Assembly: GCA_030167865.1 (NCBI GenBank)
Contig: JALAGF010000584.1
Span: 1-34,806 of the forward strand
Reading direction: 5' to 3'
DNA length: 34,806 nucleotides
Source of the DNA: Craspedostauros australis
Taxonomy: Eukaryota
In this document: one piece after another, positions 769 to 34,806 of the stretch
Layout of the letters: each line of letters starts with the position of its first letter
Numbering within the stretch: the first letter of the stretch is position 1
Made by a program: the position numbers and the translations under genes
The notes under the pieces: generated by a model
The model's input: the letters and a program-made list of their open reading frames with translations, nothing else
Databases searched by the model: none
Told to the model about the DNA's origin: nothing

Positions 769-3700
769 CTATTGCTTTATTTCCATGCCGTTGCCATCGC
801 CATCGCCGTTGCCATTGCTGGTGCCGCTGCCGTTGGAGCCTTCGACCAACCAGGGTCGTTCCTCCACGTATTTGGCAAGCAATGGTTTGGCGAATTGGTA
901 GCTCGTCTCTACGATCTCTTCGAATTTGTCGTATTCCAACGTCCCTATGTGCCCCACAGGAGGCATGAGATCGAGATCGGAAAACGATTTCACGCGTTGC
1001 ATGTGATGATCTGACGATGCCCACACTAGGAGGCCGTTCAGGTCCATCATGGACGGCACGACGACCGTCTTGGCGAATGGATTGAGGCTGTTCCACAGCA
1101 ACCACCAACCACTCAGACTGGTGCCGTAGTCATGGTATTCTCTTTCGCTCTCTGGGCTGACGTCGATCGAAATGACTGTCTTGGCGCCCATGGTGTTGCG
1201 CATCACGTCGGCTGGCAGGGCGTTCATGTAGCCCCCGTCGACGAGGTACTTGCCGTCTTCGGCGACGGGCGGGAGGTAGCCTGACAGCGACATGCTAGCC
1301 TGGACGTATTTCCACAGGCACCCCTTGCGGTGGACCAGTTGCTCGGGCTTGAGCAGATCGACAGAAACGCAGAAGAATTCGAGGGCCAGATCCTGGACTC
1401 GCTTCGTGGGTCCCAGGAGCTTCCGGATCGTTCTGCTGAACATGAAGCCGCTGAAGGTGCTGACCATCGGCAAAGTGAGGTCGAACAGCTTCTCTTGCAC
1501 GCTCGACATCTTCTCCGACATGTCACGGCACGCCGCGTACATGAAATCGTAATTGTCAGGATGCTGCGCCAGCAGCGCACCAACGAATGCGCCCTGCGAC
1601 GTCCCACCGACGATGTCGACCGTCACGCCAAGTTCGAGCAGTGCTCGGTACACGCCGAGATGGGCTAGGCCTCTGGCACCTCCGCCACCCAACACCAATC
1701 CCAACGAATTGCCGCACACCCGTCGGCTCATCCGAGCAAAGTCCAGCTGATGCTTGGAGAATGGTTTTCGGATCAGATGATGACCGGCGATCCATTTCCT
1801 CTTCTCGCTCCAGGTGTTGAGATCCTCGGCAACGTCCTCGTTCCGTTTCTTCATCAATCGGATTCTGGATCGTCGTCGACGTTGCTGCTGCTTCTTCTGC
1901 TCTTCGTCATCTTGCCCCACGACCACAAGATCGATGCGAACATGCATGCTCTCGAAGGCCCATACCAGGGACTGCTTGAGCCGTCCAAGATCTGGTGCCT
2001 TGTTGGCATCTACGAGCACCAGGATGCTGTCAGCCTGCTGGATACACACCTTCGTCCACCACGTGTATCGGGCGTCAGCCTTGTACAGAACGAGACGATT
2101 GTTTTCTTCCATGTCGGCCAGGAATCGCGTCATGCGGACATCGTACAGCGCATTCTGTCCTTTCTTCGGCGGCGCACCGATGGCGCTTTTCACTATTTGC
2201 TTCGTGAGCAGTCGGCACGGAGCGTTCTTGCCAAAGGCTGCGACCATGTGGCGCAGCAAGGTCCCGCAGTCCTTCGTGTCTTCCATCAGCGGGATGACGG
2301 CGACTGTCGCAACCTTCAGGCCGTAGCTTGGGAGGGGACCCAGCGCCGCGTCCATCTTGGGCTTGCCAGCCTTGTTGGTTTGCTGGATCTGCGATGCGAT
2401 TGCGCGTGCAAAGTACAGCCCGGCCGATGGATGCTCATTGATGATGACGAGCATGGTGCGGAGCGGGACGCTGACGAATTCACTCTTGCGGATGGCGTAC
2501 AGGTCGAACGGCCAATGGCCGGAAGTGAGACATTCCACCTTCCCTACCATCTTGCCACGTCCGAACTCTTTGTCCTTGACTCCGTCGTGGACCATCTTCC
2601 GGTCCCCGCTATGGCTGGCGCGCAAGCGTCCGTTCAACACGACGTACATGGAATCGCACGACATGCCCTCCGTGACGATGGTATCGGCCGACTCCGCATA
2701 ATGCCAATTGCAAGACCACAGCAGCAAATGGACGGCGGAAGGGATGCGCTGCAGGATGGATTCCAGAGACAAAACCATGACGTGCGATGGGTTTTGCATG
2801 AGGAGGCTGTGGAAGACGCGGCGTGGAATTCGCAACAACGATGCAGCGGCGGTGGTTTTGGTGTTACGAACGGTGAACATGCTCAGATCGTGCGTGAAGC
2901 AGACGTACTCCCCAAGGATGTCACCGGGATTCAGCGTCTCGTGATGAGTGAAGGTCCATATCAAGGCGGACTCCATCTCGCCCGTTTCCGTCATCGTTGG
3001 TTGCCCGTAATGCGGCACCAAAATCCCTGACTCCACCGACCCACGCAATAGGAGGTAGCAGTACTCGTGATTGTCTCCAGCCTGGATGAGGGTTTCGTTC
3101 GGCTCGGACAGCGTGACGATGTCAGCAGTCGCCTTGACGAGAGCCGAAGCGTTGGCCGAAGATGCGATACCGAAGTGTGTCAGGAACTCATCGCACGCCT
3201 CGTGGAATATTTGTTTGTTCGCCTTTGCGTCATGGATCGTGTGCTTCTTCCATCCCGCGATTCTGCGCAAAGTTCGGTCGGAATGTACCTTGGCGGTTGG
3301 CGTTTGCAAGAGCTCCTTCCTCATGCCCAGCGTGTTGATCAAGCACTGCGTCGTCAAGCGCTGGGCCTGCAGCAGGATGGTTTGCGCGATGCGGTGCACG
3401 TTGGTGGGGAACATCTGGCAGATTTGGGAGAAGCAGGATGGTGGGACACGAATGAGCTGGACGGGCTCATCCGACGCCGCCACGCTGATTTGATGCGCGA
3501 AGTCGAGAACGTCGCTTTGGGGGTCATCGTGCTGCATCTTTTCATGCTGCACCATGCCAGCCAGCATGGTGACAAGGGAGGTCACCATCTGCCCGGCTTC
3601 GCGCGTGACGCCGTACACGCCGGGATACTCAGGCAGATCCTCCGGCGACGTCGGTTCGTCGTGTGGCAACTTCATGGAATGGAATCGGCAACGGACCTTG

Positions 3701-5256
3701 CCGCTCATGACGGCGTACAGCGATCCATCCAACGGTTTGTCGCCAGTGTTGTCGAATAGCACTTCGTGCGGTTCGAGCTGCACCATCTGGACCTGCTGGA
3801 TGCAGATCTTCATGGCATCGGCGTTGAGGTACGCAAAGATCTTGAACTTCTTCATGAGCTTGTAAAGCTCGAGCTGCTTTCTGCTCGTCGATGCGAATGA
3901 TGACGACGCTTCTGCCGACTCTGGCGCCCGTGCATGATGGTTGTCATCGCTGTTCCAATCATCGTCGGAAAAGTCATCCTGCCCGAAATCCGAAAATTGC
4001 AGCAGCACGTCATGTTCCGAGGCGGCATCCATTTCGGTCGTGATCGTCACATCCTCGTCCGATTCCTGATCGGTGATATGCGATCGCAACAGCGTCTGGT
4101 AGCTCTGTCGTCGCGATCGGCGTCTGGACTGCCGTATGATGGATTTGCGACGATCCTGGGAGGTTGATCCGCGTCTGTCCTGCATCGCGCTCATATCAAG
4201 GCGAACGTGCGGGCTTTCCGCCAGCGATCTTTCATTGCGCGCAACATCGCCGGCTCCAGAATCCGCGCTGCTCGTCGAACTGTCGTCAGCGTGATTTTCT
4301 GGGTCCATGGCGCTGTCATGATCGCTGTCCAGACCGTCGTCGTCGTCGTCGTCGTCATCATCAGTGGCGCCATTGCTGGTGCTGTACTCGTTGGCGCAGC
4401 TATCATCCGCATCGTAATCGGAATGCTGTTCGGAGTGAGGCGAGGACAGATCGGTGATGGCATTGTTGAGCTGCCTCTTCTGCCGATTGCGTCGACGTCG
4501 CAATCGACGTTGCTTGCGCCGTTTGTAATTGATGCGCGATCCTTTGGTGGGACGGATGTGGGTCTGCCGATTGAGAATCCAAAATATGAGGCTGACGGAG
4601 AAGATCACGACTGGCAGCAAGGTGATCTCCACGAGGAAGAGGGAACGAAAATGCCAGCCCGTGGTGGAGGTGACGGTGGTGGTTTGTGTCGAGGCGATTC
4701 CATTTGATGTGGATTCGTGCAGCGTGTTTGCGTGGGCATCGGCGTCGTTAGTGGCGCCAGCGATGATTGTGGCATCCCTTGCACCTTCCATCTCCACGCC
4801 TGCGTCCAATATGGGCAGTCCAGTCATGTTGCGAGGTGAAGCGTCCGTTCCATCTGGGTGAACGCCAAGTTCTGTGTTGGATTCCTGGGTCGAGACCGCA
4901 TCTGGCGGTGCCATCATGGTCGTCGTCGTGGTGGTGGTAGTGGTGGTCATGTTCTTGATGATGTACGTGTTAATGGCTTTGCGCAATTGCTGCACAGCGA
5001 CGTCCTTGGCCTTTCCTGCAGCTGCTTTGGCCTTGTCTTTGGCATCATCAGGGAATAGCCCTTTGCCGTTCATGTTGCGCTTGCCATTCGTGTTGGTGTT
5101 AGTGTTAGTCTTCGTGTCGGTGTTCGTGTCAGGCATTCCTGTGGAAGTGGAAGTCGACGTGGAAGTCGAAGCGACGGTGCCATCCATAGCAACGTCTGCG
5201 GTCGCTTCTTCCATTGTCGCGTCACCATTCGATTGCTTTGCGAGATCGGGAGTCAT
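769..5256 (-). CDS. NTE1: Patatin-like phospholipase of the neuropathy target esterase (NTE1/PNPLA6-7/SWS) type, with cyclic-nucleotide-binding-like domains
   Basis: Uninterrupted ~1495-codon ORF, first ATG at 5256 (track starts at GTG 5265). One hydrophobic segment (SLFLVEITLLPVVIFSVSLIFWIL) is followed by a basic then an acidic tract. Three cNMP-like segments (SLYAVMSGKV, YCYLLLRGSV...PGDILGE, SMYVVLNGRL...GRGKMVG). Patatin motifs GLVLGGGGARG, GTSQG and LVDGGY, plus NTE-typical WTKVCIQQAD and DFARMSR. Confidence 0.93.
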   Translation of the reverse strand: MTPDLAKQSNGDATMEEATADVAMDGTVASTSTSTSTSTGMPDTNTDTKTNTNTNTNGKRNMNGKGLFPDDAKDKAKAAAGKAKDVAVQQLRKAINTYIIKNMTTTTTTTTTTMMAPPDAVSTQESNTELGVHPDGTDASPRNMTGLPILDAGVEMEGARDATIIAGATNDADAHANTLHESTSNGIASTQTTTVTSTTGWHFRSLFLVEITLLPVVIFSVSLIFWILNRQTHIRPTKGSRINYKRRKQRRLRRRRNRQKRQLNNAITDLSSPHSEQHSDYDADDSCANEYSTSNGATDDDDDDDDDGLDSDHDSAMDPENHADDSSTSSADSGAGDVARNERSLAESPHVRLDMSAMQDRRGSTSQDRRKSIIRQSRRRSRRQSYQTLLRSHITDQESDEDVTITTEMDAASEHDVLLQFSDFGQDDFSDDDWNSDDNHHARAPESAEASSSFASTSRKQLELYKLMKKFKIFAYLNADAMKICIQQVQMVQLEPHEVLFDNTGDKPLDGSLYAVMSGKVRCRFHSMKLPHDEPTSPEDLPEYPGVYGVTREAGQMVTSLVTMLAGMVQHEKMQHDDPQSDVLDFAHQISVAASDEPVQLIRVPPSCFSQICQMFPTNVHRIAQTILLQAQRLTTQCLINTLGMRKELLQTPTAKVHSDRTLRRIAGWKKHTIHDAKANKQIFHEACDEFLTHFGIASSANASALVKATADIVTLSEPNETLIQAGDNHEYCYLLLRGSVESGILVPHYGQPTMTETGEMESALIWTFTHHETLNPGDILGEYVCFTHDLSMFTVRNTKTTAAASLLRIPRRVFHSLLMQNPSHVMVLSLESILQRIPSAVHLLLWSCNWHYAESADTIVTEGMSCDSMYVVLNGRLRASHSGDRKMVHDGVKDKEFGRGKMVGKVECLTSGHWPFDLYAIRKSEFVSVPLRTMLVIINEHPSAGLYFARAIASQIQQTNKAGKPKMDAALGPLPSYGLKVATVAVIPLMEDTKDCGTLLRHMVAAFGKNAPCRLLTKQIVKSAIGAPPKKGQNALYDVRMTRFLADMEENNRLVLYKADARYTWWTKVCIQQADSILVLVDANKAPDLGRLKQSLVWAFESMHVRIDLVVVGQDDEEQKKQQQRRRRSRIRLMKKRNEDVAEDLNTWSEKRKWIAGHHLIRKPFSKHQLDFARMSRRVCGNSLGLVLGGGGARGLAHLGVYRALLELGVTVDIVGGTSQGAFVGALLAQHPDNYDFMYAACRDMSEKMSSVQEKLFDLTLPMVSTFSGFMFSRTIRKLLGPTKRVQDLALEFFCVSVDLLKPEQLVHRKGCLWKYVQASMSLSGYLPPVAEDGKYLVDGGYMNALPADVMRNTMGAKTVISIDVSPESEREYHDYGTSLSGWWLLWNSLNPFAKTVVVPSMMDLNGLLVWASSDHHMQRVKSFSDLDLMPPVGHIGTLEYDKFEEIVETSYQFAKPLLAKYVEERPWLVEGSNGSGTSNGNGDGDGNGMEIKQ

Positions 5257-6313
5257 GATCGACACGTGGCAATACGAGTACTCGTATGATGTAATATGTT
5301 ACGATAGTGTGCACAGTAAGATGCTCTGAGTATGCTCTGGCTACACTCGTATTGTTGTTGTTGTGCGCAATGTGCTGAGAGGTTGATGATACTCGTATTC
5401 TGAGATTATGATGACTGCCGGCCTCTCCAGAATCCCGACCAAGCGAGCGAGTGCGTGCCTTCTCCGATGCCTGCCTTTGATACTCGTAATACTCGTCCTG
5501 TGATACTGAGGCCGAGGCTGACACCAAAAGAGTGCAGATGTCGCAGATGCATCGATGCTTCGCCAGCCACCGCGCACCCTGCGAGGTCTCAACAGGGAGG
5601 CTGTCGAATTGGTGTCAACCGGTGATGTGACTTGCGTGATTGCGGCACTTTTCGGCAATAGCGGAATACGTGAACTTGTGTGTGCAACGCGATTGAATCG
5701 TATCCTTGCTGTGATTCCGATTGCTCGTATTGGTACTGTACGAGTATCACCGGTGAGAGAAGGATCCCATTCCGATGCGCCAACATCATACATCGTTGGA
5801 AACACCTTCCTTCCTTCTTTCTCCCTTTGACATCGCACTTGACGCCGTCAGTGGTTGACATCAACAAAAAAGGAGAAGAAAAGAACAATCCAAGAACATG
5901 ACCCCTTTCGACAAGGTTGTTCGCGCGCAATTCTTCGCCATAGTCTGTCCGTCGTCGGTGCATCGCGTGGTTTGAAGTTGTATCATTTTGCCCCTCTGTC
6001 TTCGTTGTTGTAGACTAATGCATACCCACACACAGTCTGTTCGATCGGAGTCGACGACGGGCGAGACGTCGTGTCGACCAGCGAGTGCATCATGAATAGT
6101 AGTCGAGCAGAGGAGAGCACTTTGTGGGCATTGTATCTCTAACTTGACGATACACGTAGGTGTACAATTCAAATCAGAATGCAAAACAGCGCGACACTCG
6201 CACTGTCGTAGGCGTATGGTATGCATCATTGTAACAGTACTGCACTATACTACTAATCGCAGTGTAGCTCGGTCTGCAGCAAAGCATATGTCCTACACTG
6301 CATTCCTATCCAC

Positions 6314-7672
6314 CTATTCCTCCGGATACTTGCACCCGCATCGCTTGAAATAGTTCTTGTACTGCCGCGATACGGTCTTGAACGCGGTACCGTGCGATGC
6401 CGGTGAAGTCTGTGGCAGCTGCACCAGCGTCACATTCTCGTGCGTGAGCCTGCCTTGCGTGGCGAGGATCATGTTGCCTTGGCTCACGTCCTCATCGGGA
6501 TAGAACAGGGATTTGCGATTCTGCAACGACGTGCCGTCGAGGTAGGCGTACCGCGCCGTGGCCTGCGACATGAAGTAGCAGCCGCCCAAAGCGTAGGCCG
6601 GCGTTTTGAACAGCGGATTGTCGCAGACCTTCTTCCAGTACGATTTGCGGCAGACCGTGCGCGTGATGAACCAACCCAAGTAGACGTAAGTTTGGCTCAG
6701 CTGCGTCTCGATTGACCGAAGGTATCCCCAGAACCGATCGACGAACATGATGGCGTCGCTGTCGAGCTTGCCGACGTACTGGATGTTGAGATCCTGGCGT
6801 TCCAATGCGACCAACGCGGCGGCGTACGTGAACCACGCCTCGCTCTTGCCGTCGTTGGCATTCTCGCGCACGCTGAGGAAGGTGATGTCATTGTGCGTCG
6901 CGATTTCTGTGGGATCGGAGTAGTTGTACTGCGGAGATGCGACGATGTAGCCATCGGCCTTGTCGCCGCATTCGGGGTAGTAGCAGACGGGTGGTTGCGT
7001 CTTGGGATCGCCGCCGCCCATGACGAACGTATACACGAAGAGACAGGCTCTGGGATCCGCCTGTAACGTCGTGTTGGCAAGCAGCTGATTCAAGCTGCAT
7101 ATCGTCTTCTTTTCCTCCTCATGGATGACCGGCTCGATGGATTTGGTGTAGTAGGAGAGGTACGTCTGCCGTATGTTGTCGCGCTGTACTTTGGCCTCAT
7201 CATTGTCGTAGGTGAAGATCCCAAAGAGATACCGTCGACTCGACAATGGCGGTCGCAGTCCATCTTCGCCCTTCTCCTGCAAGACGGGCTGTTCGGGCGT
7301 CGGTTGCACAATGTTTAACGTCGGCACTCCTCGTCGCTCGGGCATTGGTGGTTCTTGCGTCGTCTTCGTCTTCGTAGTCATAGCAGAGGAAGTTGTGGTC
7401 GTCGCCTTCGTGGCAGCTGTGGTCGCAACAGTTGTGGTGGTGGTCTCTTGTACAATCTTTGGCTGTTTCATTTCTTCCGATGGGGGCATTTCTGGCCGCA
7501 GTTTCGAGACTGCCATGGCCTCGTGCTGCGCAATTATCTGATGGACGTCTCCCATCCTGCTGTGCAAGAGGTAGCCGCTGATGCAAGCAAAGGTCACCAA
7601 CATGGCGACCATGATGGGGAAGGCCATCTGCCTGCTGTTGGCCTTGCTTCGTTTCGTTGTGCGGCGCGCCAT
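6314..7672 (-). CDS. Type II membrane glycosyltransferase, GT31 (beta-1,3-galactosyltransferase)-like; paralog A
   Basis: Probable ATG at 7672 (MARRTTKRSK, matching the paralog's MAQRTRHK). Basic cytoplasmic tail, one TM helix and a Thr-rich stem. Catalytic region has R..IR.TY, EN.NDGK, YVGKLDSD (DxD), YALGGCYFMS and EDV, all GT31-style motifs. Confidence 0.78.
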   Translation of the reverse strand: MARRTTKRSKANSRQMAFPIMVAMLVTFACISGYLLHSRMGDVHQIIAQHEAMAVSKLRPEMPPSEEMKQPKIVQETTTTTVATTAATKATTTTSSAMTTKTKTTQEPPMPERRGVPTLNIVQPTPEQPVLQEKGEDGLRPPLSSRRYLFGIFTYDNDEAKVQRDNIRQTYLSYYTKSIEPVIHEEEKKTICSLNQLLANTTLQADPRACLFVYTFVMGGGDPKTQPPVCYYPECGDKADGYIVASPQYNYSDPTEIATHNDITFLSVRENANDGKSEAWFTYAAALVALERQDLNIQYVGKLDSDAIMFVDRFWGYLRSIETQLSQTYVYLGWFITRTVCRKSYWKKVCDNPLFKTPAYALGGCYFMSQATARYAYLDGTSLQNRKSLFYPDEDVSQGNMILATQGRLTHENVTLVQLPQTSPASHGTAFKTVSRQYKNYFKRCGCKYPEE

Positions 7673-8239
7673 TGTACGCTGTGTGTTGTTGGCGTTTCTG
7701 TCGGCGTTGCTGCTCTGTAACTGGCCAAGATGAAGATGTTGTTGATGTTGTTGATGTCGCTTTCTTACTTGCGTTGATGAGAAGAACGATGGTGATGATG
7801 AACGAGTGTGGTTGTGTGATGTGTGTCGGTCATTGTTTCTGTTCCCTGTTTGTGGAAATCTCAACGGTCGCCACTTCCTGGTTGTCCAATCACATGCAGA
7901 GAATGGAGAACTGCAAGATGTGCGTGCAGATTGTGGGTCGTCAGCGATAGGAACTTACCAACCAATGCCACTCCACTCTCCTCCACTCCACTCCACTCCA
8001 TTCTCATGTACAGACACGACGATCTACGTAATCGTGCCATACTCTATCTGTCACAAATACAAATGGTGTGTCATAACTGTCAATATGCATAGTGGTCATC
8101 TATGCATATTGACAATAACTGCGTGAACTACGAGAATAACAGTCTATTATATGAACATTGTACCGTACTCCATTGTTTGGAAACAGGCCGAATTTGAAGC
8201 AACCTCCTTTTGCCATGACAAGCACCAATACATACATCA

Positions 8240-9679
8240 TCACTTCGTCGGCCAATCCTCGGCCGTCGCCATCATCTCCTTCGTGTTGTTGTACAAACAC
8301 CCACACCGCTGGAAGTAGTTCTTGTACATTCGGCGCGGCGTCTTTTGACCAGCATGCGACGCCGGCGACTGCGGTGGCAGCTGCATCAACGTGATGTCGT
8401 CCACCGTCACGTTGCTATCGTTGCCCAGCATCATGTTGCCCTGACTCATGTCTTCATGATGCGGAAAATGCAACGACCGACGATGGTCGGACGACGATCC
8501 GTCGAGGTAAGCGTTGCGCAGCAGGGCCTTGGAGATGATGTAGGTACCGCCCAAAGCGAATTTGGGGGCCTTGAACAGCGGGTCCTTGCAGAGGTTGTCC
8601 CAGCGCCCCGTCGAACATTGCTTCTTGGTGACGAACCATCCCAGCAGCACGTACTTGTCGCGCAGCTGCCGTTCGTTGTTGTGCGTGTAGTTCCACAGTC
8701 GATTGACGAACATGATGGCGTCGCTATCGATCTTGGCCGCGTACTGGATGTTGAGATCTTCGCGGTCCAGCGCGATCAGGGCGGCGGCGTACGTGAACCA
8801 CGTTTCCGATTTGCCGTCGTCGGCATTCTCCTTGACGGTGAGGAAGGTGAGATCATTGTGCGTTGCGATCTCGTTGGGATCGGAGTAGTTGTTGTTGGGG
8901 AACGCGACGATGTAGTCATCAGCCTTGTCGCCGCATTCGGGGTAATAGCAGACGGGCGGTTGCGTCTTGGGATCCCCGCCGCCCATGACGAAGGTGTAGA
9001 CGAAGAGACAGGCTCTGGGATCCGCCTGTAACGTCGCGTTGGCAAGCAGCTGGTTCAAGCTGCATATCGTGTTGCGTTCGGATGGGTGGATGGTGGGCTG
9101 GATCGACTTGGTGTAGTACGAGAGGTATGATTTGCGAATGCCCTCTCGGTGCAGTCTCGCGTTGGGGTTGTCATACGAGAAGATTCCGAAGAGATATCTG
9201 CGGGGAGACAACAGCGGTGGCAACGTGTTGTTGCCCATCATGCTAGTCGTGCTGTTGGTCTCTCCTCCTGCTCCTTCTCCTATTCTCTGTTCTTCTCCGA
9301 TAGCTTCCACCGCCGACGCTGTTGTCGCAGCTGTTGTCGTTTCAGCTTTTGTGGTGGTTGTTTCTGCCGTCGTTGAGGCTGGCGTAGTAGTTGTAGTTGT
9401 TGTTTCTATCGCCACCGTCGACGGAACTGAATCTGCGATCGAGGATGGCTCATGCTGCACCTGCGGTTCCAGCGGCAATCCTTCGCCCAAATTCATCTCC
9501 GCCTCGGCTGCCTTGAGAGATAATTCAGAAGCATTGATTTGTCGGTACGAGAGGAACGCGTGGATCATCACGAAGAGTGTCAAGACGGCCATCAGCACCA
9601 GCAGCCTTGCGTTGGTGCCATCGGTCTTGCGCTTCCTCGAGCCTGATTTGCGGTTCTTGTGTCTTGTGCGTTGCGCCAT
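8240..9679 (-). CDS. Type II membrane glycosyltransferase, GT31-like; paralog B (tandem duplicate)
   Basis: 479-aa ORF with the same architecture as paralog A. Motifs YAAKIDSD, FALGGTYIIS and HEDMSQGNM. Aligns by eye with paralog A across the whole catalytic domain, ending NYF.RCGC.Y. Confidence 0.8.
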   Translation of the reverse strand: MAQRTRHKNRKSGSRKRKTDGTNARLLVLMAVLTLFVMIHAFLSYRQINASELSLKAAEAEMNLGEGLPLEPQVQHEPSSIADSVPSTVAIETTTTTTTPASTTAETTTTKAETTTAATTASAVEAIGEEQRIGEGAGGETNSTTSMMGNNTLPPLLSPRRYLFGIFSYDNPNARLHREGIRKSYLSYYTKSIQPTIHPSERNTICSLNQLLANATLQADPRACLFVYTFVMGGGDPKTQPPVCYYPECGDKADDYIVAFPNNNYSDPNEIATHNDLTFLTVKENADDGKSETWFTYAAALIALDREDLNIQYAAKIDSDAIMFVNRLWNYTHNNERQLRDKYVLLGWFVTKKQCSTGRWDNLCKDPLFKAPKFALGGTYIISKALLRNAYLDGSSSDHRRSLHFPHHEDMSQGNMMLGNDSNVTVDDITLMQLPPQSPASHAGQKTPRRMYKNYFQRCGCLYNNTKEMMATAEDWPTK

Positions 9680-27550: not shown

Positions 27551-28230
27551 CTACTCCACGCGAGTCGACACACTGGAGGTTGTCGAGGCAGTTGTCGACC
27601 ACCTGGAGCAAATCGACGAACCTTCATCGGCAACGGTGTCCCCCTTCGTTTCAACATCCGAGCGGTGGTCCTCGAATACGGAGGTTACCCTTTCTTGAAT
27701 GTGTGCGGCCTTGGCAATGATCACAGTTGCAAATGCCGTCGATACAAGCTCATCCCCATCACTCCCTCTGGTTTGTGGTTGGAATGAAAGGGAGCGTTTC
27801 TCCTTCTCCTTCTCGTTCTGCTTTTGCCGCTGCAGCAACTGAGCAGCGGCCACAGCATTGGCATCTTCCTGCCCACGCAGCTGCTCGACGAAGAAATTGG
27901 GTTCGGTTTGTAGCGCACTGAGCTGATTCCTCATGCCGCACAACGCCCTCGTGCTCTTGACTCTGCGCTCGTTCCTCCGCATCTGCAATAATTGGATATT
28001 CTTGCGCAGCGACGTAACTTCTCGCGGCGTTCCTCCGCGACTGGGTCTGCACAATGGTCGTGCGGTGCTTGTCCATCGCAGCCACGAAGCCTGGGCTGCA
28101 TGATACGTACGGTTCGGCTCACCACCACCATCATTCTGATGTGCGCCTGACGCTCCTCGAGCAGGGCGATATTCTGCTTTTCGACTTCTTGGACTCTCCG
28201 CGTGTTTGCGCTGTCATCCTGGACACTCAT
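27551..28230 (-). pseudogene. Possible frameshifted or spliced coiled-coil gene fragment
   Basis: Coiled-coil-like peptide appears in successive different minus frames (VQEVEKQNIALLEERQ; AAMDKHRTTIVQ; EVTSLRKNIQLLQMRRNERR...NQLSALQ). No family recognised. Confidence 0.25.
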
Positions 28231-28512
28231 CGTGGTGCACTACGGTCGTATCGCTGAGGCGTATGATGGGAACCACGGTGGGCGTGAATGGAGAGTGATG
28301 ATTGCATGGTGCAAAACACAGCTCTATTCAATGAAGAACCGTTGAGTTGAGTTGAGGCACCCTGCTCCATGCTGTGATGATGATGACTGAGGACGACGTG
28401 ATGTTTTGGAACTCGTTCTCGTCATCGTTTTGCTGGTGCTGTTCCACTTGATGTTCACCATGATGTTCATCTGTCACATGACGTTGTTGATGGTGCAGTT
28501 GTTGTCGGAGGT

Positions 28513-28516
<4 letters not shown>

Positions 28517-28550
<34 letters not shown>
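28517..28550. repeat. (CT)n microsatellite
   Basis: About 17 CT units, read directly. Confidence 0.92.
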
Positions 28551-28551
<1 letters not shown>

Positions 28552-28945
28552 ACGGACCAAACTCCGCAAAGTTGACTCGCCAACAATCGTGGCAGACATC
28601 AGTTTGCGTTGAGATGGCTACCAATCACATGATTCAAACATGGACGATTCAACCCACGACACATTTCGAAGTAATCTACGGCATCATGTACAATTAGTAT
28701 TCGTTGAGTAATGGATGATGTCGCAACGCATGGTCAGGTCGGCGACGAGACTGAAGGTGGATCTTTCCATCACGGCAGCAAGGCACGGGAATTTCGTTGA
28801 AACTGGTACTCAGAGACAAACCAGCAGTCCCGGATGCAATCGTGCGTCACCGGACACATGCTCGTGCCCATTCGGCCACACGAACAACAGTGAAGGTGTC
28901 ATACAAACGTTAAACATACGTTATGACGGTTATTCAGCGACCAAC

Positions 28946-29135
28946 TAGTTTCAACGATTCTCTATTAGTTTCAACAAGTCGGGGTTAGTTTCAACGGTTC
29001 TTGATTAGTTTCAACAAGTCGGCGTTAGTTTCAACGGTTCTTGATTAGTTTCAACAAGTTGGTGTTAGTTTCAACGGTTCTTGATTAGTTTCAACAAGTT
29101 GGTGTTAGTTTCAACAAGTCAGCGATAGTTTCAAC
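28946..29135. repeat. Tandem array of 10 x TAGTTTCAAC at an exact 20-bp period, with alternating 10-bp linkers (40-bp higher-order unit)
   Basis: Copies start at 28946, 28966, 28986, 29006, 29026, 29046, 29066, 29086, 29106 and 29126. Linkers mostly alternate between GGTTCTTGAT-like and AAGTCGGCGT-like. Confidence 0.97.
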
Positions 29136-30695
29136 AGTTGCACAGTAGTGATTGACTCGTGTTTGGATGATCCTGAGAGCATCAGTTGGTTGCGGGGCCA
29201 ATCCGTGGCAAGTGACATCACTGGTTTCGGCTGTCGTCCGCATCCTGACGCCAAGAAAAGACTGTCACCAAGACACCCAACACAACAACACGACAATGGG
29301 GAAACAAAACAAAACTCTGCAAGGATCGTCAAATGCCATGTACGGCATTGCAACAACCATCAACCCAATTCCAGATCCAAGCATGTCAACGAAACCGCCA
29401 TGGAAAGCTTGGTGGATGGGCAAGGGGGCGCTGTCAGAGCGGCTCATTTGCGACAGCGGGAGCGAAAACAGCGAATGGCACAAAAAGGTGGCAAATTTCC
29501 ACGTTGGGTTCAGGCTATTTGTGGGAGATACAAGCCATTCCAACAACCATGGATAAGCAAATCGCATTGAGGAGATCAAGAAGAAGCCTCCTACGAAGTT
29601 CGAGTTGGAAAGACTGCCTGGAACGTTCGGACGGACAGGATCAAGTGGAGGGCAATCGGTGTTCGAGAGGTGGCATTGCATGCATCACCTGGCTTTGCTG
29701 GTGTGGTGGCACATGTGAACATCCATCACATTGCCAAACGACCCATATAAGATGTCTTCATCATCAAGTCGGGAATGGGGTGGAGAAGTGGGGATTGGTT
29801 CGATTGAGTGGGAGAGGTGGAAATCAAGAAAATGTGGCAGTCGCATTTCCGAGACAAAGAAAGCTGGCCATGGTACCAGCATCGGGATGAATTGAAATGC
29901 AGAGATACATCCTGAGGCATTGGAGGATGCATCAACATGCCCTCAATGAATCAGGGATCGAGGTATGATGCTTGGGGGAGGAGGAACATAGATGGTTGTG
30001 AACAGGAGGTATGGTCGGATGAAGCGGCTGTGTGAAGATCGACCCTCATTGTCAAGGTGTTGGTTTTCAGCAGTGAGCTGACAATGCGGATTGAAGGGAG
30101 ATACACTGGTGCATGCTTGCCAGGGATGGATACAAATGGGGTATATGGAGACAATGAGGTGTGCAAGTGAACGAAATGAGACATTCATGGGCATCGTCTT
30201 GGATGGCAAAGCAACGGCAGCATGGTCCCATCCAGAATTTTGCGCCACACACAATCGCACGTTGGCAACAAAATGATGTTAAATTTGAAGTCAATTTCAA
30301 TTTAAGTCCAATATTCTTATTCGCAACCAACGAGTTGTTCACATGGTACACTTAGTTTTAATTGTAGATGATGTGGTGTTGCGATATAGCATCATAAGCG
30401 TTTTTGGGATGGATTGCAATTTTGCTCCAGACTGGGCTACGCAACACGACTAATCCCACGCTGGAGATCTAAAAACTGTACAACTCGTGCTATCGGTTTG
30501 CCAAGTGAGTGTGGTGCATCGCGCGCCCAGATCTGCACAGAGACGGACACCACAGCACACACACAACAAGAACCAGCAATCATATCTGAAACCAAATACA
30601 TTGAAGATGATTGATAGTTAATTACATGCAGAGTGTTGAGTTCCTACTATTGTTAATTTTCTCCGGGTGTGGTAGTGATCGTGAGCGCAATGGCC

Positions 30696-31172
30696 TCACT
30701 TCTTGGACGTCTTCCTGTTGTTCTTTCGCTGCTGCCAGTAGAGTGATTCATACTTCGATCTCTTTGCTGCGTGAAAGTGCTTTCGAAACTGATCGATCGG
30801 AAAGACCTGATTGCAATTTCGCAGGTTGTGGACCTGCTTTGATGAGAGGCATTTCACAGCATCATCTTGCATGTCTTGCTTCAGCATTCGCTGTGCTTCC
30901 GATCCATCCCATCGCAGCTTTGATGCACGAGGTGTTGAGATGTGCATCCGTTCAAATGCTGCAAGTGCTTCATCAGCTTTGTTTGCTTCTTCTTCGTACT
31001 TCCTCCATTTCTTTCTTAGTCGATTGAGATTGTTCCGAAAGTTGGTGTACTTGATGCTGCCAAACTCAACCCTCCCTTCGTATATCTGCTTGGGAGTCAT
31101 CTCTGGTGTGATGGCTCCCATCTTCAGGTCCTTCTCCAGCACTGCTTTTGCGTCGGCCCATTTCATGGGCAT
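30696..31172 (-). CDS. Small basic helical protein with two internal repeats; putative transposon DNA-binding accessory protein
   Basis: 158-aa ATG ORF. Repeat 1: KWADAKAVLEKDL...TPKQIYEGRVEF....YTNFRNNL. Repeat 2: RWDGSEAQRMLKQDM...SSKQVHNLRNCN..FPIDQFRKHF. Basic NLS-like tail RKNNRKTSKK. Confidence 0.7.
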   Translation of the reverse strand: MPMKWADAKAVLEKDLKMGAITPEMTPKQIYEGRVEFGSIKYTNFRNNLNRLRKKWRKYEEEANKADEALAAFERMHISTPRASKLRWDGSEAQRMLKQDMQDDAVKCLSSKQVHNLRNCNQVFPIDQFRKHFHAAKRSKYESLYWQQRKNNRKTSKK

Positions 31173-31882
31173 CCTGTCTTGCGATGATGATCACCAGGCT
31201 TTCACGATGAGGGTTGCGATGGTGGCTGTGCCAAGAAGAGACGATGTATGTGATGATGGTCTTGCTGCGGTGTCAATGGACTTGCATTGAAAACACTCGA
31301 TGTCACCAATTTGGATACCATGGATGCGCACCATGCCATTCGATGTAGTTTGCTGGCGTTGTTGCAATGGTGCCCTGGGTGCACCTTCTGCTGTTGCTGC
31401 CAAGGTACTGGTATCAAGATTGTTGCTTCATCTGGTACCTTTCCGTGCAACATACCGTTTATCCTGTACCCGCATTTGCACATGACCATGGTGCTGTTTC
31501 CGTGTGTGTCCGTTGCTGACCATGTCCTTGCACATGGTGCTGTTGCATTTCAATCTCCTGGCTTGTGTTGCTCATCCGGTTGTTCGAATTACAGTTGGCC
31601 TTGCTTTCTCCAAGTTGGTGGGACCACATTCGTATTATACTTGGCACTGTCATTGTTTGTGTAGGTATGGTCTTGTGTGAAGTGATCATCATCAGCACAC
31701 AGAGAAATCTCTTCCTCTCTTCCTCGTGTCATTGCGTGCTCTTCTGTGGGTGGTGTCGGTGTTTGAATGGCAGCCAAAATTGGACTCTGCCGAACCATCA
31801 CAAAACCCACCAGCAGAGAAATTCAGGAGCCAATCAAGAGAACGCATTCGGCACCACACTCTGCGCCACACTCCAGCACACG

Positions 31883-33771
31883 ATGGAACAGATTACTTCT
31901 CCCGCGCCGCGGTCCGCCCGCCAAAAAACTCCCAGCCGTTCAAATAAGAAGTCGGTGACTCGTGAAGTCGATCTCTCTGTGTTGGATTTTTTGCTCGGAG
32001 CAAGTCGCTTGGACACATTCAAAGCTCACTGTGACGACAATCAGCACATCCATGGCAAGCGCAATTCTGATCTGCGCGAAGCCAGCCGCCAACGAATGTA
32101 CTACCTCAGAAGACGGCTGGACCGAGCTGGCCTTTTGGCACTACAGCAAACACACAGAGAGGCCCTTGAGCTGGAGAATGACAGAGGAGATCACAAACCA
32201 GCCAAGGAGACGATCGACACGCCAACAGTCGCATCAACACCTCCCACTTCCGTGCCAACCGCACCAATATCAACAGTATCGACAACAACCTCACCACCAC
32301 AAAGACGAAGGATCAACTTCAGCTCATACAAGAACAAGATGGCGAAGAACAGCGATGACACCAGCAACTTCACCAACGAAGATCATGCTGGGATGGAGTA
32401 CAAGATAGACCTCGACCGCCCTTTCCAGAATGCCGACAACACGATCATCTATCGTGTCAATGACGTGCTGCTGGATGGCCGCTCCCTGGACTGCCTTGTC
32501 ATCCGCAAGTTCATTCTGGACAAGGATGATGTCACGAAGGTGAAGGCATCCCTGTGCGATGATGGGATCTCTATCAAGATTGAGGAGCCAAGCGTCCCAG
32601 CCGTGATGCTCGAGAGATCCACACAAACAATGTTTCTCACAAAGAAGGGGAACCATGATCCCAACATTGGGAGGGAAAAGAATGCCTTCAACAAGCTCGT
32701 CAACAGAGAGCTCAACAGAGGTGCAGAGACCAAGTACACCTACTTCATCTGCCCTGATGGCATGGTGCTCTCCACCAACTACTTTGGAAACGAGCCAGAG
32801 CGCCTCGCGAAAACGTACCGACCGATCGCAAAGCATCACATCCACCACAAGAGCCACATGGAATATCAAATTCCAATGAATGTGGTGTACTGGAAAGTTG
32901 CGATCAAGGGATTCGATGGAAAGGTGGACATCGAGGAAGACCACAGCGAGGGTGAAGACGATTTCTTCGCAATGATGGGCAAAGCCGGTGCGTAAAACGA
33001 GCATTTGATTCGACCTGATTGACCTGTGCTTTGCTCTACCATTGTAGTAACATCAAATTAGACTGATTACTCACAAACAAACACCAACTGCTCTTTCTTC
33101 ATTGACGTGCACGCACCCAAACTGTCATGATTCGCACAGCATCGCTTACCGTCGCCGGTAGTGGCAGGCATGATGCAAATGACAACATGAGCATGAGCGA
33201 CGTCTCAAGCTACGCAGAGAGCCCAGAAGACCCTACGCCAAACCAAACCTTCAGCCATGGCGGTGTCATCCATCCAGGTCGTCCGGACCCAGTCCATAGC
33301 AATGATGATGGCATCTATCCAATTTGTCCGGACCCAGTCTATAGCAATGACAATGGCATCCATCCAGCTCCTGCGAATCCGGCTGAAACTGTGGAAGGCA
33401 TCGATGCATTGGACTTGCAATTGCCATTTGCGCCAGCAGATGCTCTGAAGCCCGCTGCGGAAGAACCAGCAGCAGTTAAAATTGCGACAGTGGCGCCTGC
33501 TACTGTTGCTTGCTGTGCCCCTGCAGCTTCGAGCAACCCAACAGACACAATCATGGGCGACGAAGGGCAGCACCTCAAGCGCTCTCATCCCGTGCTGCGC
33601 CACAACAATCTCCCGAAGAAGATGAAGGCTGACAAGCATGAAGAAGACAGCAAGCTTGCATCAATTGATCTTGCATCGATTGATCTTGCAGTCAACACAC
33701 GTGTTCCAAGCAGTGACACTGATTCTGAGAGTGTTGACGAGGCACTCGAACTCTTCTATTCCCAGGCATGA
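31883..33771 (+). CDS. Transposon-associated hypothetical protein: 370 aa if unspliced (31883-32995), or ~578 aa if intron 32988-33139 is removed
   Basis: Likely ATG at 31883 (MEQITSP). N-terminal helical domain (CDDNQHIHGKRNSDLR...RMYYLRR), Thr/Pro linker and a beta-rich domain. Donor G|GTGCGT at 32988 and acceptor CGCACAG| at 33139 would fuse the 33127..33771 ORF in frame. Confidence 0.68.
33266..33368 (+). repeat. In-frame 45-bp tandem duplication (PDPVHSNDDGIYPIC / PDPVYSNDNGIHPA)
   Basis: GTCCGGACCCAGTC(C/T)ATAGCAATGA occurs twice, 45 bp apart. A separate 15-bp repeat (LASID x2) lies at ~33655-33690. Confidence 0.85.
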
Positions 33772-33843
33772 AGCAATCTGTTGCAAACATTGAAGTATTC
33801 TATAAGTAATCAACTAGTTCCTACTACTCGACTCCCATGTTGT

Positions 33844-34806
33844 TTAGATGTCAAATATTGGATGGCCATGGTCGAGTTCGTACTGAATCAAAACACAGCA
33901 GGCCTCAAATAGGCACTGATGCTTGCTCAGTTGATTGCGGTACCCATTCGCAAGTGCTTGGAAGTTCTTGATTCTTCCGTTAAAGCTCTCATGCCGTGCT
34001 CTTGCTCGATTCTTGAACTTCCTCACAGCAGCAGAATCACACGGATTTGGGGCACTGATTGTAGGCTCATTGTTGTACCCCCCATCAGCAATTACCAGGG
34101 CATTCGGTGGGATCTTGGATTTGAGACCATCTGGCTTGCGATACATCACCAGATCTGAAGTGGAAGCTGGAAATGGCCCATTGATCCACACCAGCTTGCT
34201 CTCTGCCAGGGATATCCCGAGCTCATACGTCAAACCAGCTGAGTGAGACTTGTGAGAGTACCACTTGGTTCCTGGGTCCATCCGTGGTTCTTGGATCCTG
34301 ATGTGAACACCATCAACAGTGATGATGAAGTGTTTATCGTCTCCTGCAAGTTCTGTTGTGTTTGGCGGCCAGATGACCTATTGATGGTGTACCAGAATGA
34401 AAAGAAAGAAGAGAAACATGTGAGAGAGTTCGTTCGAGAGAAGGAAATGAAAGAAGCATTCCAGCACAAGATTCCCTTTGTCACACTTGCCTTTTGTGGC
34501 AGCAGGGCTTGAATAGCTGGCAAGTACGACCAGATGAGACCACGGATAGTCTTCTCATCCAAATTCCATCGGCCAGCCATCACATGCTCTGTGCAGTATG
34601 TTTTCAGCCAGTTCAAGACAACAAAGAGATCGCGCGGACGCGGACGTTTGAATTGTGCCGTTTGGCTGTTGAAGAGATCCACGAAGAGGGAAGCAAAGCT
34701 TTCAGGGCACAGTCCGTACGTTGCAGCAAAGCGAGTCTGCATCGTGCGATCTGCCATCTTTTCCTGACGGAAACCGGCATACTTGAGGCCAAGTGTGAGC
34801 ACTTCA
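33844..34806 (-). CDS. DDE transposase, PIF/Harbinger-like (DDE_Tnp_4); exons >34806-34491 and 34377-33844; 5' end outside the window
   Basis: Exon 1 has an HTH-like region (LNWLKTYCTEHVMAGRWNLDEKTIRGLIW). Splicing 34490-34378 gives ...LPQK|VIWP...FIITVDGVHIRIQEP...WYSHK...WINGPFPASTSD...VIADGGY...RARHESFNGRIKNF, which contains the catalytic acidic residues with no stops. Confidence 0.92.

Follow-up and report, generated by a model that had tools for sequence, protein, structure and literature searches.

A predicted HSP20-like beta-sandwich behind a putative nucleic-acid-binding domain in an uncharacterised protein encoded beside a Harbinger-type transposase gene of Craspedostauros australis

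The window considered here, a stretch of 34,806 nucleotides from Craspedostauros australis (GenBank assembly GCA_030167865.1, contig JALAGF010000584.1, positions 1 to 34,806 of the forward strand), contains a gene, P0001, that lies beside a Harbinger-type transposase gene. Judged from its sequence, the stretch at 31883-32995 is a real and intact gene whose product belongs to an uncharacterised family of eukaryotic proteins, and structure prediction supports the view that the C-terminal domain of its product (C-domain) shares the HSP20-like sandwich with the alpha-crystallin domain (ACD) of small heat-shock proteins (sHSPs) and with CS domains. The explanation that we favour on the basis of these models, and that we regard as probable, is that P0001 acts as a scaffold or adaptor tethered to nucleic acid and built on a sandwich of the ACD/CS type. 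In such a protein the N-terminal domain (N-domain) would bind nucleic acid and some 60 disordered residues would link it to the C-domain. Self-association or the recruitment of a partner, as known from the ACD and CS domains of other proteins, would then fall to the ACD/CS-like sandwich, either by itself or aided by a motif in the tail, with a family-specific helical hairpin presumably taking the place of the beta6 loop.

The coding sequence and its family

The frame that holds P0001 is free of stops over 491 codons. In 300 first-order Markov simulations, the segment 28001-34806 never produced a frame of at least 476, the longest frames having a mean of 171 aa and a maximum of 325. Searched exhaustively with HMMER, a set of 1.84 billion representatives contained 32 relatives of P0001 at E<=1e-3, the closest at E 3.6e-13 with 26% identity, and a subsequent profile search brought nine more clusters. 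When the profile was built from 38 relatives with P0001 left out, P0001 was its sole match among the 710 six-frame open reading frames (ORFs) of the window (156 bits, E 3.6e-47), in an alignment that spans both modules of the protein (profile positions 4-302). The long frame, the existence of relatives and this leave-one-out match lead us to regard P0001 as coding sequence and not as a chance pattern. The family profile found no second copy of P0001 among the six-frame ORFs of the rest of the window.

The family comprises about 40 distant relatives (P0002-P0040) and carries no family name. In the source databases all members are called "hypothetical protein" with the single exception of P0008, to which JGI has automatically given the name "predicted RNA-binding protein with TRAM domain"; this label was discarded, neither a TRAM nor any other Pfam match being present in the 39 members, nor a TRAM-type fold in the VIA lists of structural matches. 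Two conserved modules emerge from the family alignments, at residues ~20-105 and ~170-345 of P0001, with a linker between them that is unalignable, and some relatives of about 200 aa carry the second (C-terminal) module only. The membership of P0001 is manifested in the presence of both modules and of the signature turn residues described below. Other searches were unproductive: a word-indexed search with P0001 alone gave 0 relatives among 3502 candidates, the sole PDB match of the P0001 sequence was to a chitin-binding protein (E 1.2), and the ESM Atlas held no usable match for the C-domain. Likewise, neither a family alignment nor P0012 led to a confirmed locus in metagenome contigs, and the family alignment had no match in viral contigs or in prokaryote genome contigs.

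The predicted fold of the C-terminal domain

Two AlphaFold2 (AF2) runs were made, one with the family alignment of 39 sequences (mean predicted local distance difference test, pLDDT, 76.6) and one with the C-domain alone and 32 sequences (mean pLDDT 85.2, predicted template modelling score 0.78, the five models ranging from 82.6 to 85.2). In the full-length run the helical N-domain is predicted at pLDDT 93-97 (residues 27-101), the linker falls below 50 at 109-119 and 121-167, and the C-domain reaches about 95 (residues 170-345). The predicted strands of the C-domain run at 187-197, 200-211, 221-224 and 230-236 before the hairpin and at 283-289, 310-321 and 327-341 after it, while the hairpin itself, of about 45 residues, is formed by helices 240-254 and 260-278 at pLDDT 61-84. 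Both runs give the same secondary-structure elements for the C-domain.

The initial annotation had read an HSP20/alpha-crystallin-like domain from the spacing of three strings, all of which are borne out by the translation: DCLVIRKFILDKDDVTKVKASLCDDGISIKIEEP corresponds to P0001 residues 203-236, with the first base of D203 at nucleotide 32489 as it had stated, KYTYFICPDG to residues 284-293, and VVYWKVAIKG to residues 334-343, ending at nucleotide 32911. Its placement of the strands coincides with the AF2 models, in which beta3, beta4 and beta5 are 200-211, 221-224 and 230-236, beta7 is 283-289 and the last strand is 327-341, and what it had called an insertion appears as the helical hairpin at the position of the sHSP beta6 loop. 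The conservation of these strands in homologs, which it had named as a check, was found as well, since strands and turn residues are kept in the alignments of the relatives. Hydrophobic columns alternate along every strand of the C-domain, examples being columns 201, 202, 205, 207, 211, 231, 233, 288, 290, 335, 339 and 341, where 28-32 of 29-32 rows have a hydrophobic residue. The turns of the family are marked by near-invariant residues, namely N183, D203, K209-P210, D213, D216, L224, D227-G228, E235-P236, P239, F290-P291, G293, T295-C296 and W337, of which P0001 keeps N183, D203, D213, D216, D227, G228, E235, P236, P239, P291, G293 and W337. The prolines that follow the beta3- and beta7-equivalent strands presumably parallel the "LP" positions of the ACD.

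The tails of the relatives consist of an acidic run followed by a short helix and a hydrophobic-x-hydrophobic pair. Tail columns 368 and 370 are hydrophobic in 26/27 and 25/26 rows, respectively, and 24 of 33 rows have a pair drawn from I/L/V/M/F there, the two positions being A and A in P0001. P0009 and P0015 are examples of relatives that retain the pair, in the form L/M-x-I. We take the family pair as a candidate likeness, and only that, to the C-terminal I/V-x-I/V anchoring motif of sHSPs. As a separate observation, the family has conserved cysteines at columns 258 (26/31) and 296 (27/30) and a histidine at 265 (17/31), whereas P0001 has H and L in place of the two cysteines; the cysteines may form a disulfide or a metal site that has been lost in P0001.

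Structural comparison points to the HSP20-like sandwich. In the VIA list obtained with the C-domain alone, 38 of the 50 rows (1-31 and 33-39) are sHSP or CS chains; 11 more are helical fragments of 43-66 residues that match the insertion only, and one is a spliceosome chain. The HSP20-like chains are matched over 80-95% of the target domain, from the first strand to the last, at a sequence identity of 3-14%. The Sulfolobus Hsp20.1 ACD (4rzk_B) superposes at 2.5 Å over 80 of 87 residues, and the lowest root-mean-square deviations of all C-domain matches belong to CS domains, with 2.3 Å over 80 residues for those of Shq1 (3eud_A and 4pck_B); the CS domain of Sgt1 (2xcm_C) follows at 2.8 Å over 82. 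The C-domain model contains both the two-sheet sandwich in ACD strand order (beta2/3 to beta9) expected of HSP20 and the seven-stranded HSP20-like sandwich devoid of a beta6 loop expected of CS domains. The beta5-beta7 loop carrying beta6, which in non-metazoan sHSPs serves the formation of strand-swapped dimers, is absent from the model, residues 240-278 being helical instead. At the level of the fold, ACD and CS are indistinguishable for the C-domain, which by sequence is a member of neither. The HSP20/alpha-crystallin call of the initial annotation therefore holds at the fold level, through the AF2 model, the sHSP and CS superpositions and the conserved strands, and fails as a statement of HSP20 family membership, for which no profile match exists.

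The proximity of the CS domains raises the alternative that the C-domain is of CS type, like those of p23, Sgt1 or Shq1, in which case P0001 would be an Hsp90 client adaptor or an assembly factor instead of a self-associating ACD protein. The tightness of the Shq1 and Sgt1 superpositions fits this alternative, as does the fact that the beta6 swapping loop is missing from CS domains and from the C-domain alike. Against it stand the lack of a CS profile match and the acidic tail ending in a hydrophobic-x-hydrophobic pair in most relatives, which we presume to echo the sHSP anchoring motif, and we hold a CS-type adaptor to be unlikely, if worth keeping in mind.

Several results weigh against the scaffold reading and the fold on which it is built. 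Foldseek, the search that the initial annotation had suggested, gave no significant HSP20-like match for either AF2 model. Against the PDB nothing was found at E<=1e-3 with either of them, the best values (5.6e-2 and 4.5e-2) belonging to unrelated chains; secretins, phage neck proteins, GFP and START domains, with TM scores of <=0.3, headed the lists, and an sHSP, 3gla_B, came no higher than rank 44 (E 0.53). Against BFVD, again, nothing was found at E<=1e-3 and TM scores were <=0.28. Pfam contains no family, HSP20 and CS included, that matches P0001 at E<=1, the 39 aligned members likewise have no Pfam match at E<=0.1, and the family profile gave 0 matches in the PDB at E<=10. An hhalign comparison of the family with the IbpA/IbpB pair of Escherichia coli K-12 yielded a probability of 0.06%, with the low power of a comparison to 2 sequences only. 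The model behind the fold is, moreover, a prediction made with a shallow alignment (32-39 sequences), and P0001 is itself an outlier in its family. Compared with the family consensus it has F for P210, S for G230, H for C258, C for F290, V-L for T295-C296 and A-G-A in the tail, and it forms the longest terminal branch (1.83, versus a median of 0.60) of a FastTree phylogeny that took 30 of the 32 rows after two short ones were dropped. P0001 is a divergent member of the family and may be a relaxed or decaying copy.

The non-significant Foldseek results, the low identity to the structural matches and the shallow alignment are also what would be seen if the resemblance came from a generic two-sheet sandwich or from a modelling artefact, the C-domain being a fold of its own. 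This is, in our opinion, improbable: no other sandwich superfamily is present in the top rows, the sandwich part matches HSP20-like chains only and does so over nearly the whole of the target domains, and two independent AF2 runs concur on the strand pattern.

The N-terminal domain and comparison with known systems

A clue to the function of the N-domain comes from P0003, a relative of 800 aa that bears five tandem copies of it and matches residues 3-127 of P0001 at E 4.9e-11. One of these copies matches the Pfam family DUF7083 (PF23309) at E 1.9e-10 and 41.1 bits, for a cutoff of 27, and the N-terminus of P0003 shows, ahead of the N-domain copies, a sub-threshold match to the RNase H1 N-terminal domain (Cauli_VI; 20.0 bits, cutoff 21). 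Because of the P0003 copies and of the DUF7083 and RNase H1 N-terminal matches, nucleic-acid binding can reasonably be inferred for the N-domain, and its sequence relationships suggest that it is a modular, putative nucleic-acid-binding unit. DUF7083 has no direct match in P0001 or in the 39 aligned members, so that the link runs through P0003, and a full-text literature search found no mention of this family. In agreement with a DNA-binding type of domain, 16 of 50 VIA rows are winged-helix DNA-binding proteins, which are the structural matches of the N-domain.

Among the closest known systems to the proposed scaffold is the ACD of sHSPs (HSP20, PF00011), as represented by the Sulfolobus Hsp20.1 ACD (4rzk), wheat Hsp16.9 (1gme) and Schizosaccharomyces pombe Hsp16.0 (3w1z). 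Beyond the absence of a profile match, the P0001 family differs from it in having the helical hairpin where sHSPs have their beta6 dimerisation loop, and invariant acidic and proline residues of its own. In place of the N-terminal arm of sHSPs, P0001 has a folded basic helical N-domain, and P0001 itself lacks the tail motif. CS domains (PF04969; p23, Sgt1, Shq1, NudC, PIH1D1) have the same sandwich as the C-domain and are likewise adaptor modules in multidomain proteins, whereas the helical insertion and the acidic tail of the P0001 family are foreign to them.

At the functional level, the nearest parallels are found in plants, where an ACD-type domain works with a DNA-binding module on chromatin in the IDM complex (IDM2/IDM3) and in the MBD5/6 complex (ACD15/ACD21). 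In the passages of PMC5339849 that describe them, IDM2 and IDM3 connect MBD7 to IDM1, and PMC10651127 describes how ACD15 and ACD21 bridge a J-domain protein and drive the multimerisation of the DNA-bound MBD5/6 complex. The plant DNA reader and ACD are separate proteins, however, and the plant ACDs are recognisable HSP20 domains, while P0001 joins a putative nucleic-acid-binding domain and an ACD-like domain in one chain. Our full-text literature search found nothing joining an ACD, a DNA-binding domain and a diatom.

If the scaffold model is right, a sequence-orphan family for which no Pfam entry, name or paper was found would be reusing the HSP20-like sandwich in a new setting, with a basic helix-turn-helix-like (HTH-like) domain and a disordered linker ahead of it, a hairpin at the place where sHSPs dimerise and a tail resembling the sHSP anchor. 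ACD-type scaffolds tethered to nucleic acid have so far come from plant chromatin complexes made of separate proteins, and they may exist in single-chain form in other eukaryotes. Should P0001 be an ordinary host gene, the result would be smaller, in that about 40 hypothetical proteins would gain a structural annotation.

The neighbouring transposase gene and the rest of the window

The features of P0001 and of its surroundings are collected in Table 1.

Table 1. Coordinates of P0001, of its predicted domains and of the neighbouring features in the window
Feature	Position	Strand	Remarks
P0001, intact ORF	31883..32995	+	First ATG at 31883; 370 codons plus stop (32995); translated span 31883-32992
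N-terminal basic helical domain, HTH-like (predicted)	31952..32200	+	Residues ~24-106
Disordered S/T/P-rich linker (predicted)	32201..32389	+	Residues ~107-169; unalignable among relatives
C-terminal HSP20-like (ACD/CS-type) beta-sandwich (predicted)	32390..32917	+	Residues 170-345; encloses 32489-32910
Helical hairpin insertion (predicted)	32600..32716	+	Residues 240-278, between beta5 and beta7
Acidic C-terminal tail	32918..32992	+	Residues 346-370; ends A-G-A in P0001
PIF/Harbinger-type transposase gene, 3' part	33844..34806	-	Extends past the window end
Transposase exon 1	from 34491 off the window end	-	Read from sequence
Transposase intron, GC-AG, 113 nt	34490-34378	-	Boundaries inferred, needed to keep the frame
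Transposase exon 2	34377-33847 plus stop	-	Read from sequence
158-aa ORF	30696..31172	-	Divergent from P0001, 710-bp spacer
214-aa ORF	33127..33771	+	Between P0001 and transposase; low complexity, no family
TAGTTTCAAC decamer array	28946..29135	+	Ten exact copies, 20-nt spacing; 2.7 kb upstream of P0001

The transposase matches DDE_Tnp_4 (E 8.6e-16, profile positions 1-157 of 158), its DDE motifs TVDGVH, IADGGY and RHESFNG are legible, and it appears to be intact within the visible part. Harbinger-like elements are reported for Thalassiosira pseudonana in a passage of Maumus et al. (PMC2806351). The initial annotation had placed P0001 inside the element of the window, as cargo. The Harbinger-derived proteins HDP1/HDP2 of Arabidopsis and their association with IDM2/IDM3 served it as the model for a chromatin or anti-silencing module that would be self-contained. 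P0001 does lie 0.85 kb from the 3' end of the transposase gene with its apparently intact motifs, and between ~29 kb and the window end the GC content drops to 0.46-0.51, versus 0.51-0.60 elsewhere. The GC content at third codon positions (GC3) of this block is lower too, with 0.63 for P0001, 0.57 for the 158-aa ORF, 0.49 for the 214-aa ORF (the lowest of the block) and 0.52-0.58 for the transposase, while five of seven ORFs outside it have 0.72-0.74. The other two, however, have 0.57 and 0.66 and so overlap the value of P0001. Plant ACD proteins acting on chromatin, as described in the parts of PMC5339849 and PMC10651127 mentioned above, would be in line with such a role.

Other observations argue against this proposal. 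Neither terminal inverted repeats nor a target-site duplication could be placed in the window, beyond whose end the transposase gene continues. The clusters of the relatives hold 1-3 sequences on 1-2 contigs, unlike the copy number of a transposon protein, and these low sizes are a weak argument against a protein of that kind in many copies. A profile search limited to longer proteins found no fused or extended members of the family among 6405 candidates, although this constitutes weak evidence. The Arabidopsis analogy, for its part, stands in that HDP1/HDP2 belong to a complex with IDM2/IDM3, with which they co-purify. It does not extend to direct contact, since the portions of Duan et al. 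(PMC5339849) that deal with the assays report no direct interaction between them in yeast two-hybrid or split-luciferase experiments, and for this reason the analogy is indirect. The full-text literature search found Harbinger joined with an ACD only in the Arabidopsis IDM work. On this balance, P0001 as cargo of a Harbinger-like element, of whatever kind, is rather unlikely; an anti-silencing role of the protein is very unlikely, and little credence can be given to the self-contained chromatin or anti-silencing module proposed by analogy.

Cargo could also act in transposition itself. P0001 might be the accessory DNA-binding partner of the element in replacement of the Myb-like protein, with its N-domain binding the end repeats and its ACD/CS-like domain recruiting the transposase. 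The Myb-like ORF1 protein of PIF/Harbinger elements and P0001 are both small, have a domain of DNA-binding type and are encoded beside a DDE_Tnp_4 transposase gene, and Harbinger requires such a partner according to a passage of PMC5339849. P0001 differs from ORF1 in having no Myb/SANT match and in the winged-helix character of the structural matches of its N-domain. Of the 88 six-frame ORFs of at least 45 aa that reach past 28400, 70 (spans 28230-34805) were scanned, the other 18 lying on or over the P0001 span; DDE_Tnp_4 was the only family matched, and no Myb-like ORF was present among the 70. This absence, together with the basic HTH-like N-domain, favours an accessory partner, even if a Myb-like gene may sit beyond the window end.

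Candidate binding sites are also at hand. The ten regularly spaced TAGTTTCAAC sites upstream of P0001 form part of an array of alternating 20-nt units with a 40-nt period at 95% match, and at <=1 mismatch TAGTTTCAAC has 12 matches for 1.17 expected, a number attained by none of 100 shuffles. Parts of the two unit types recur in inverted orientation at 28330-28345 (16 nt, 1 mismatch, 600 nt upstream of the array) and, 80 nt beyond the stop codon of P0001, at 33075-33090 (16 nt, 2 mismatches); the inverted repeats in 28000-34806 are short pairs only. Both the array and the inverted copy past the P0001 stop would fit a protein that binds end repeats. The inverted copies, however, bracket the 158-aa ORF and P0001 and exclude the transposase, and the array with its inverted copy likewise encloses P0001 and the 158-aa ORF and not the transposase gene, so that a separate unit fits at least as well; the low copy number of the relatives also speaks against an accessory partner. 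The array and its inverted copies could be sites to which a protein binds, or else they could be subterminal repeats in a mobile unit holding P0001 and the 158-aa ORF and lacking the transposase. We consider it decidedly unlikely that P0001 is the accessory partner of the transposase, and give a similarly low rating to the broader proposition of an algal Harbinger-type transposon that carries a DNA-binding and ACD-like protein, either as a substitute of the Myb partner that binds the TAGTTTCAAC repeats and brings the transposase, or as a protector from silencing. Were the protector version true, it would be the free-living transposon counterpart of the Harbinger-ACD pairing in the Arabidopsis IDM complex. 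P0001 is more probably a host gene or a separate unit.

With regard to the remaining ORFs of the block, the 158-aa ORF has no Pfam family and no ESM Atlas match, and its two halves resemble each other weakly (BLASTP E 0.013), both opening with W-x-x-(S/A)-x-A...L..D. The 214-aa ORF contains three 45-nt (15-aa) tandem copies at 33253-33387 and a 15-nt repeat at 33655-33695, and its status as a gene is doubtful.

The window as a whole is eukaryotic in character, as manifested by an ORF with patatin and cyclic-nucleotide-monophosphate-binding (cNMP-binding) domains of the neuropathy target esterase (NTE) type, by glycosyltransferases and by the inferred intron of the transposase gene. The first of these, a 1498-aa ORF at 769-5265 on the minus strand, combines cNMP-binding, NTE P-loop-like and patatin domains, as in a phospholipase of the neuropathy-target-esterase type. 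Two adjacent minus-strand ORFs at 6314-7864 and 8240-9679 are tandem duplicates, with direct repeats at a spacing of 1965 nt and 84% identity over 300 nt, and one member of the pair has a weak galactosyltransferase match.

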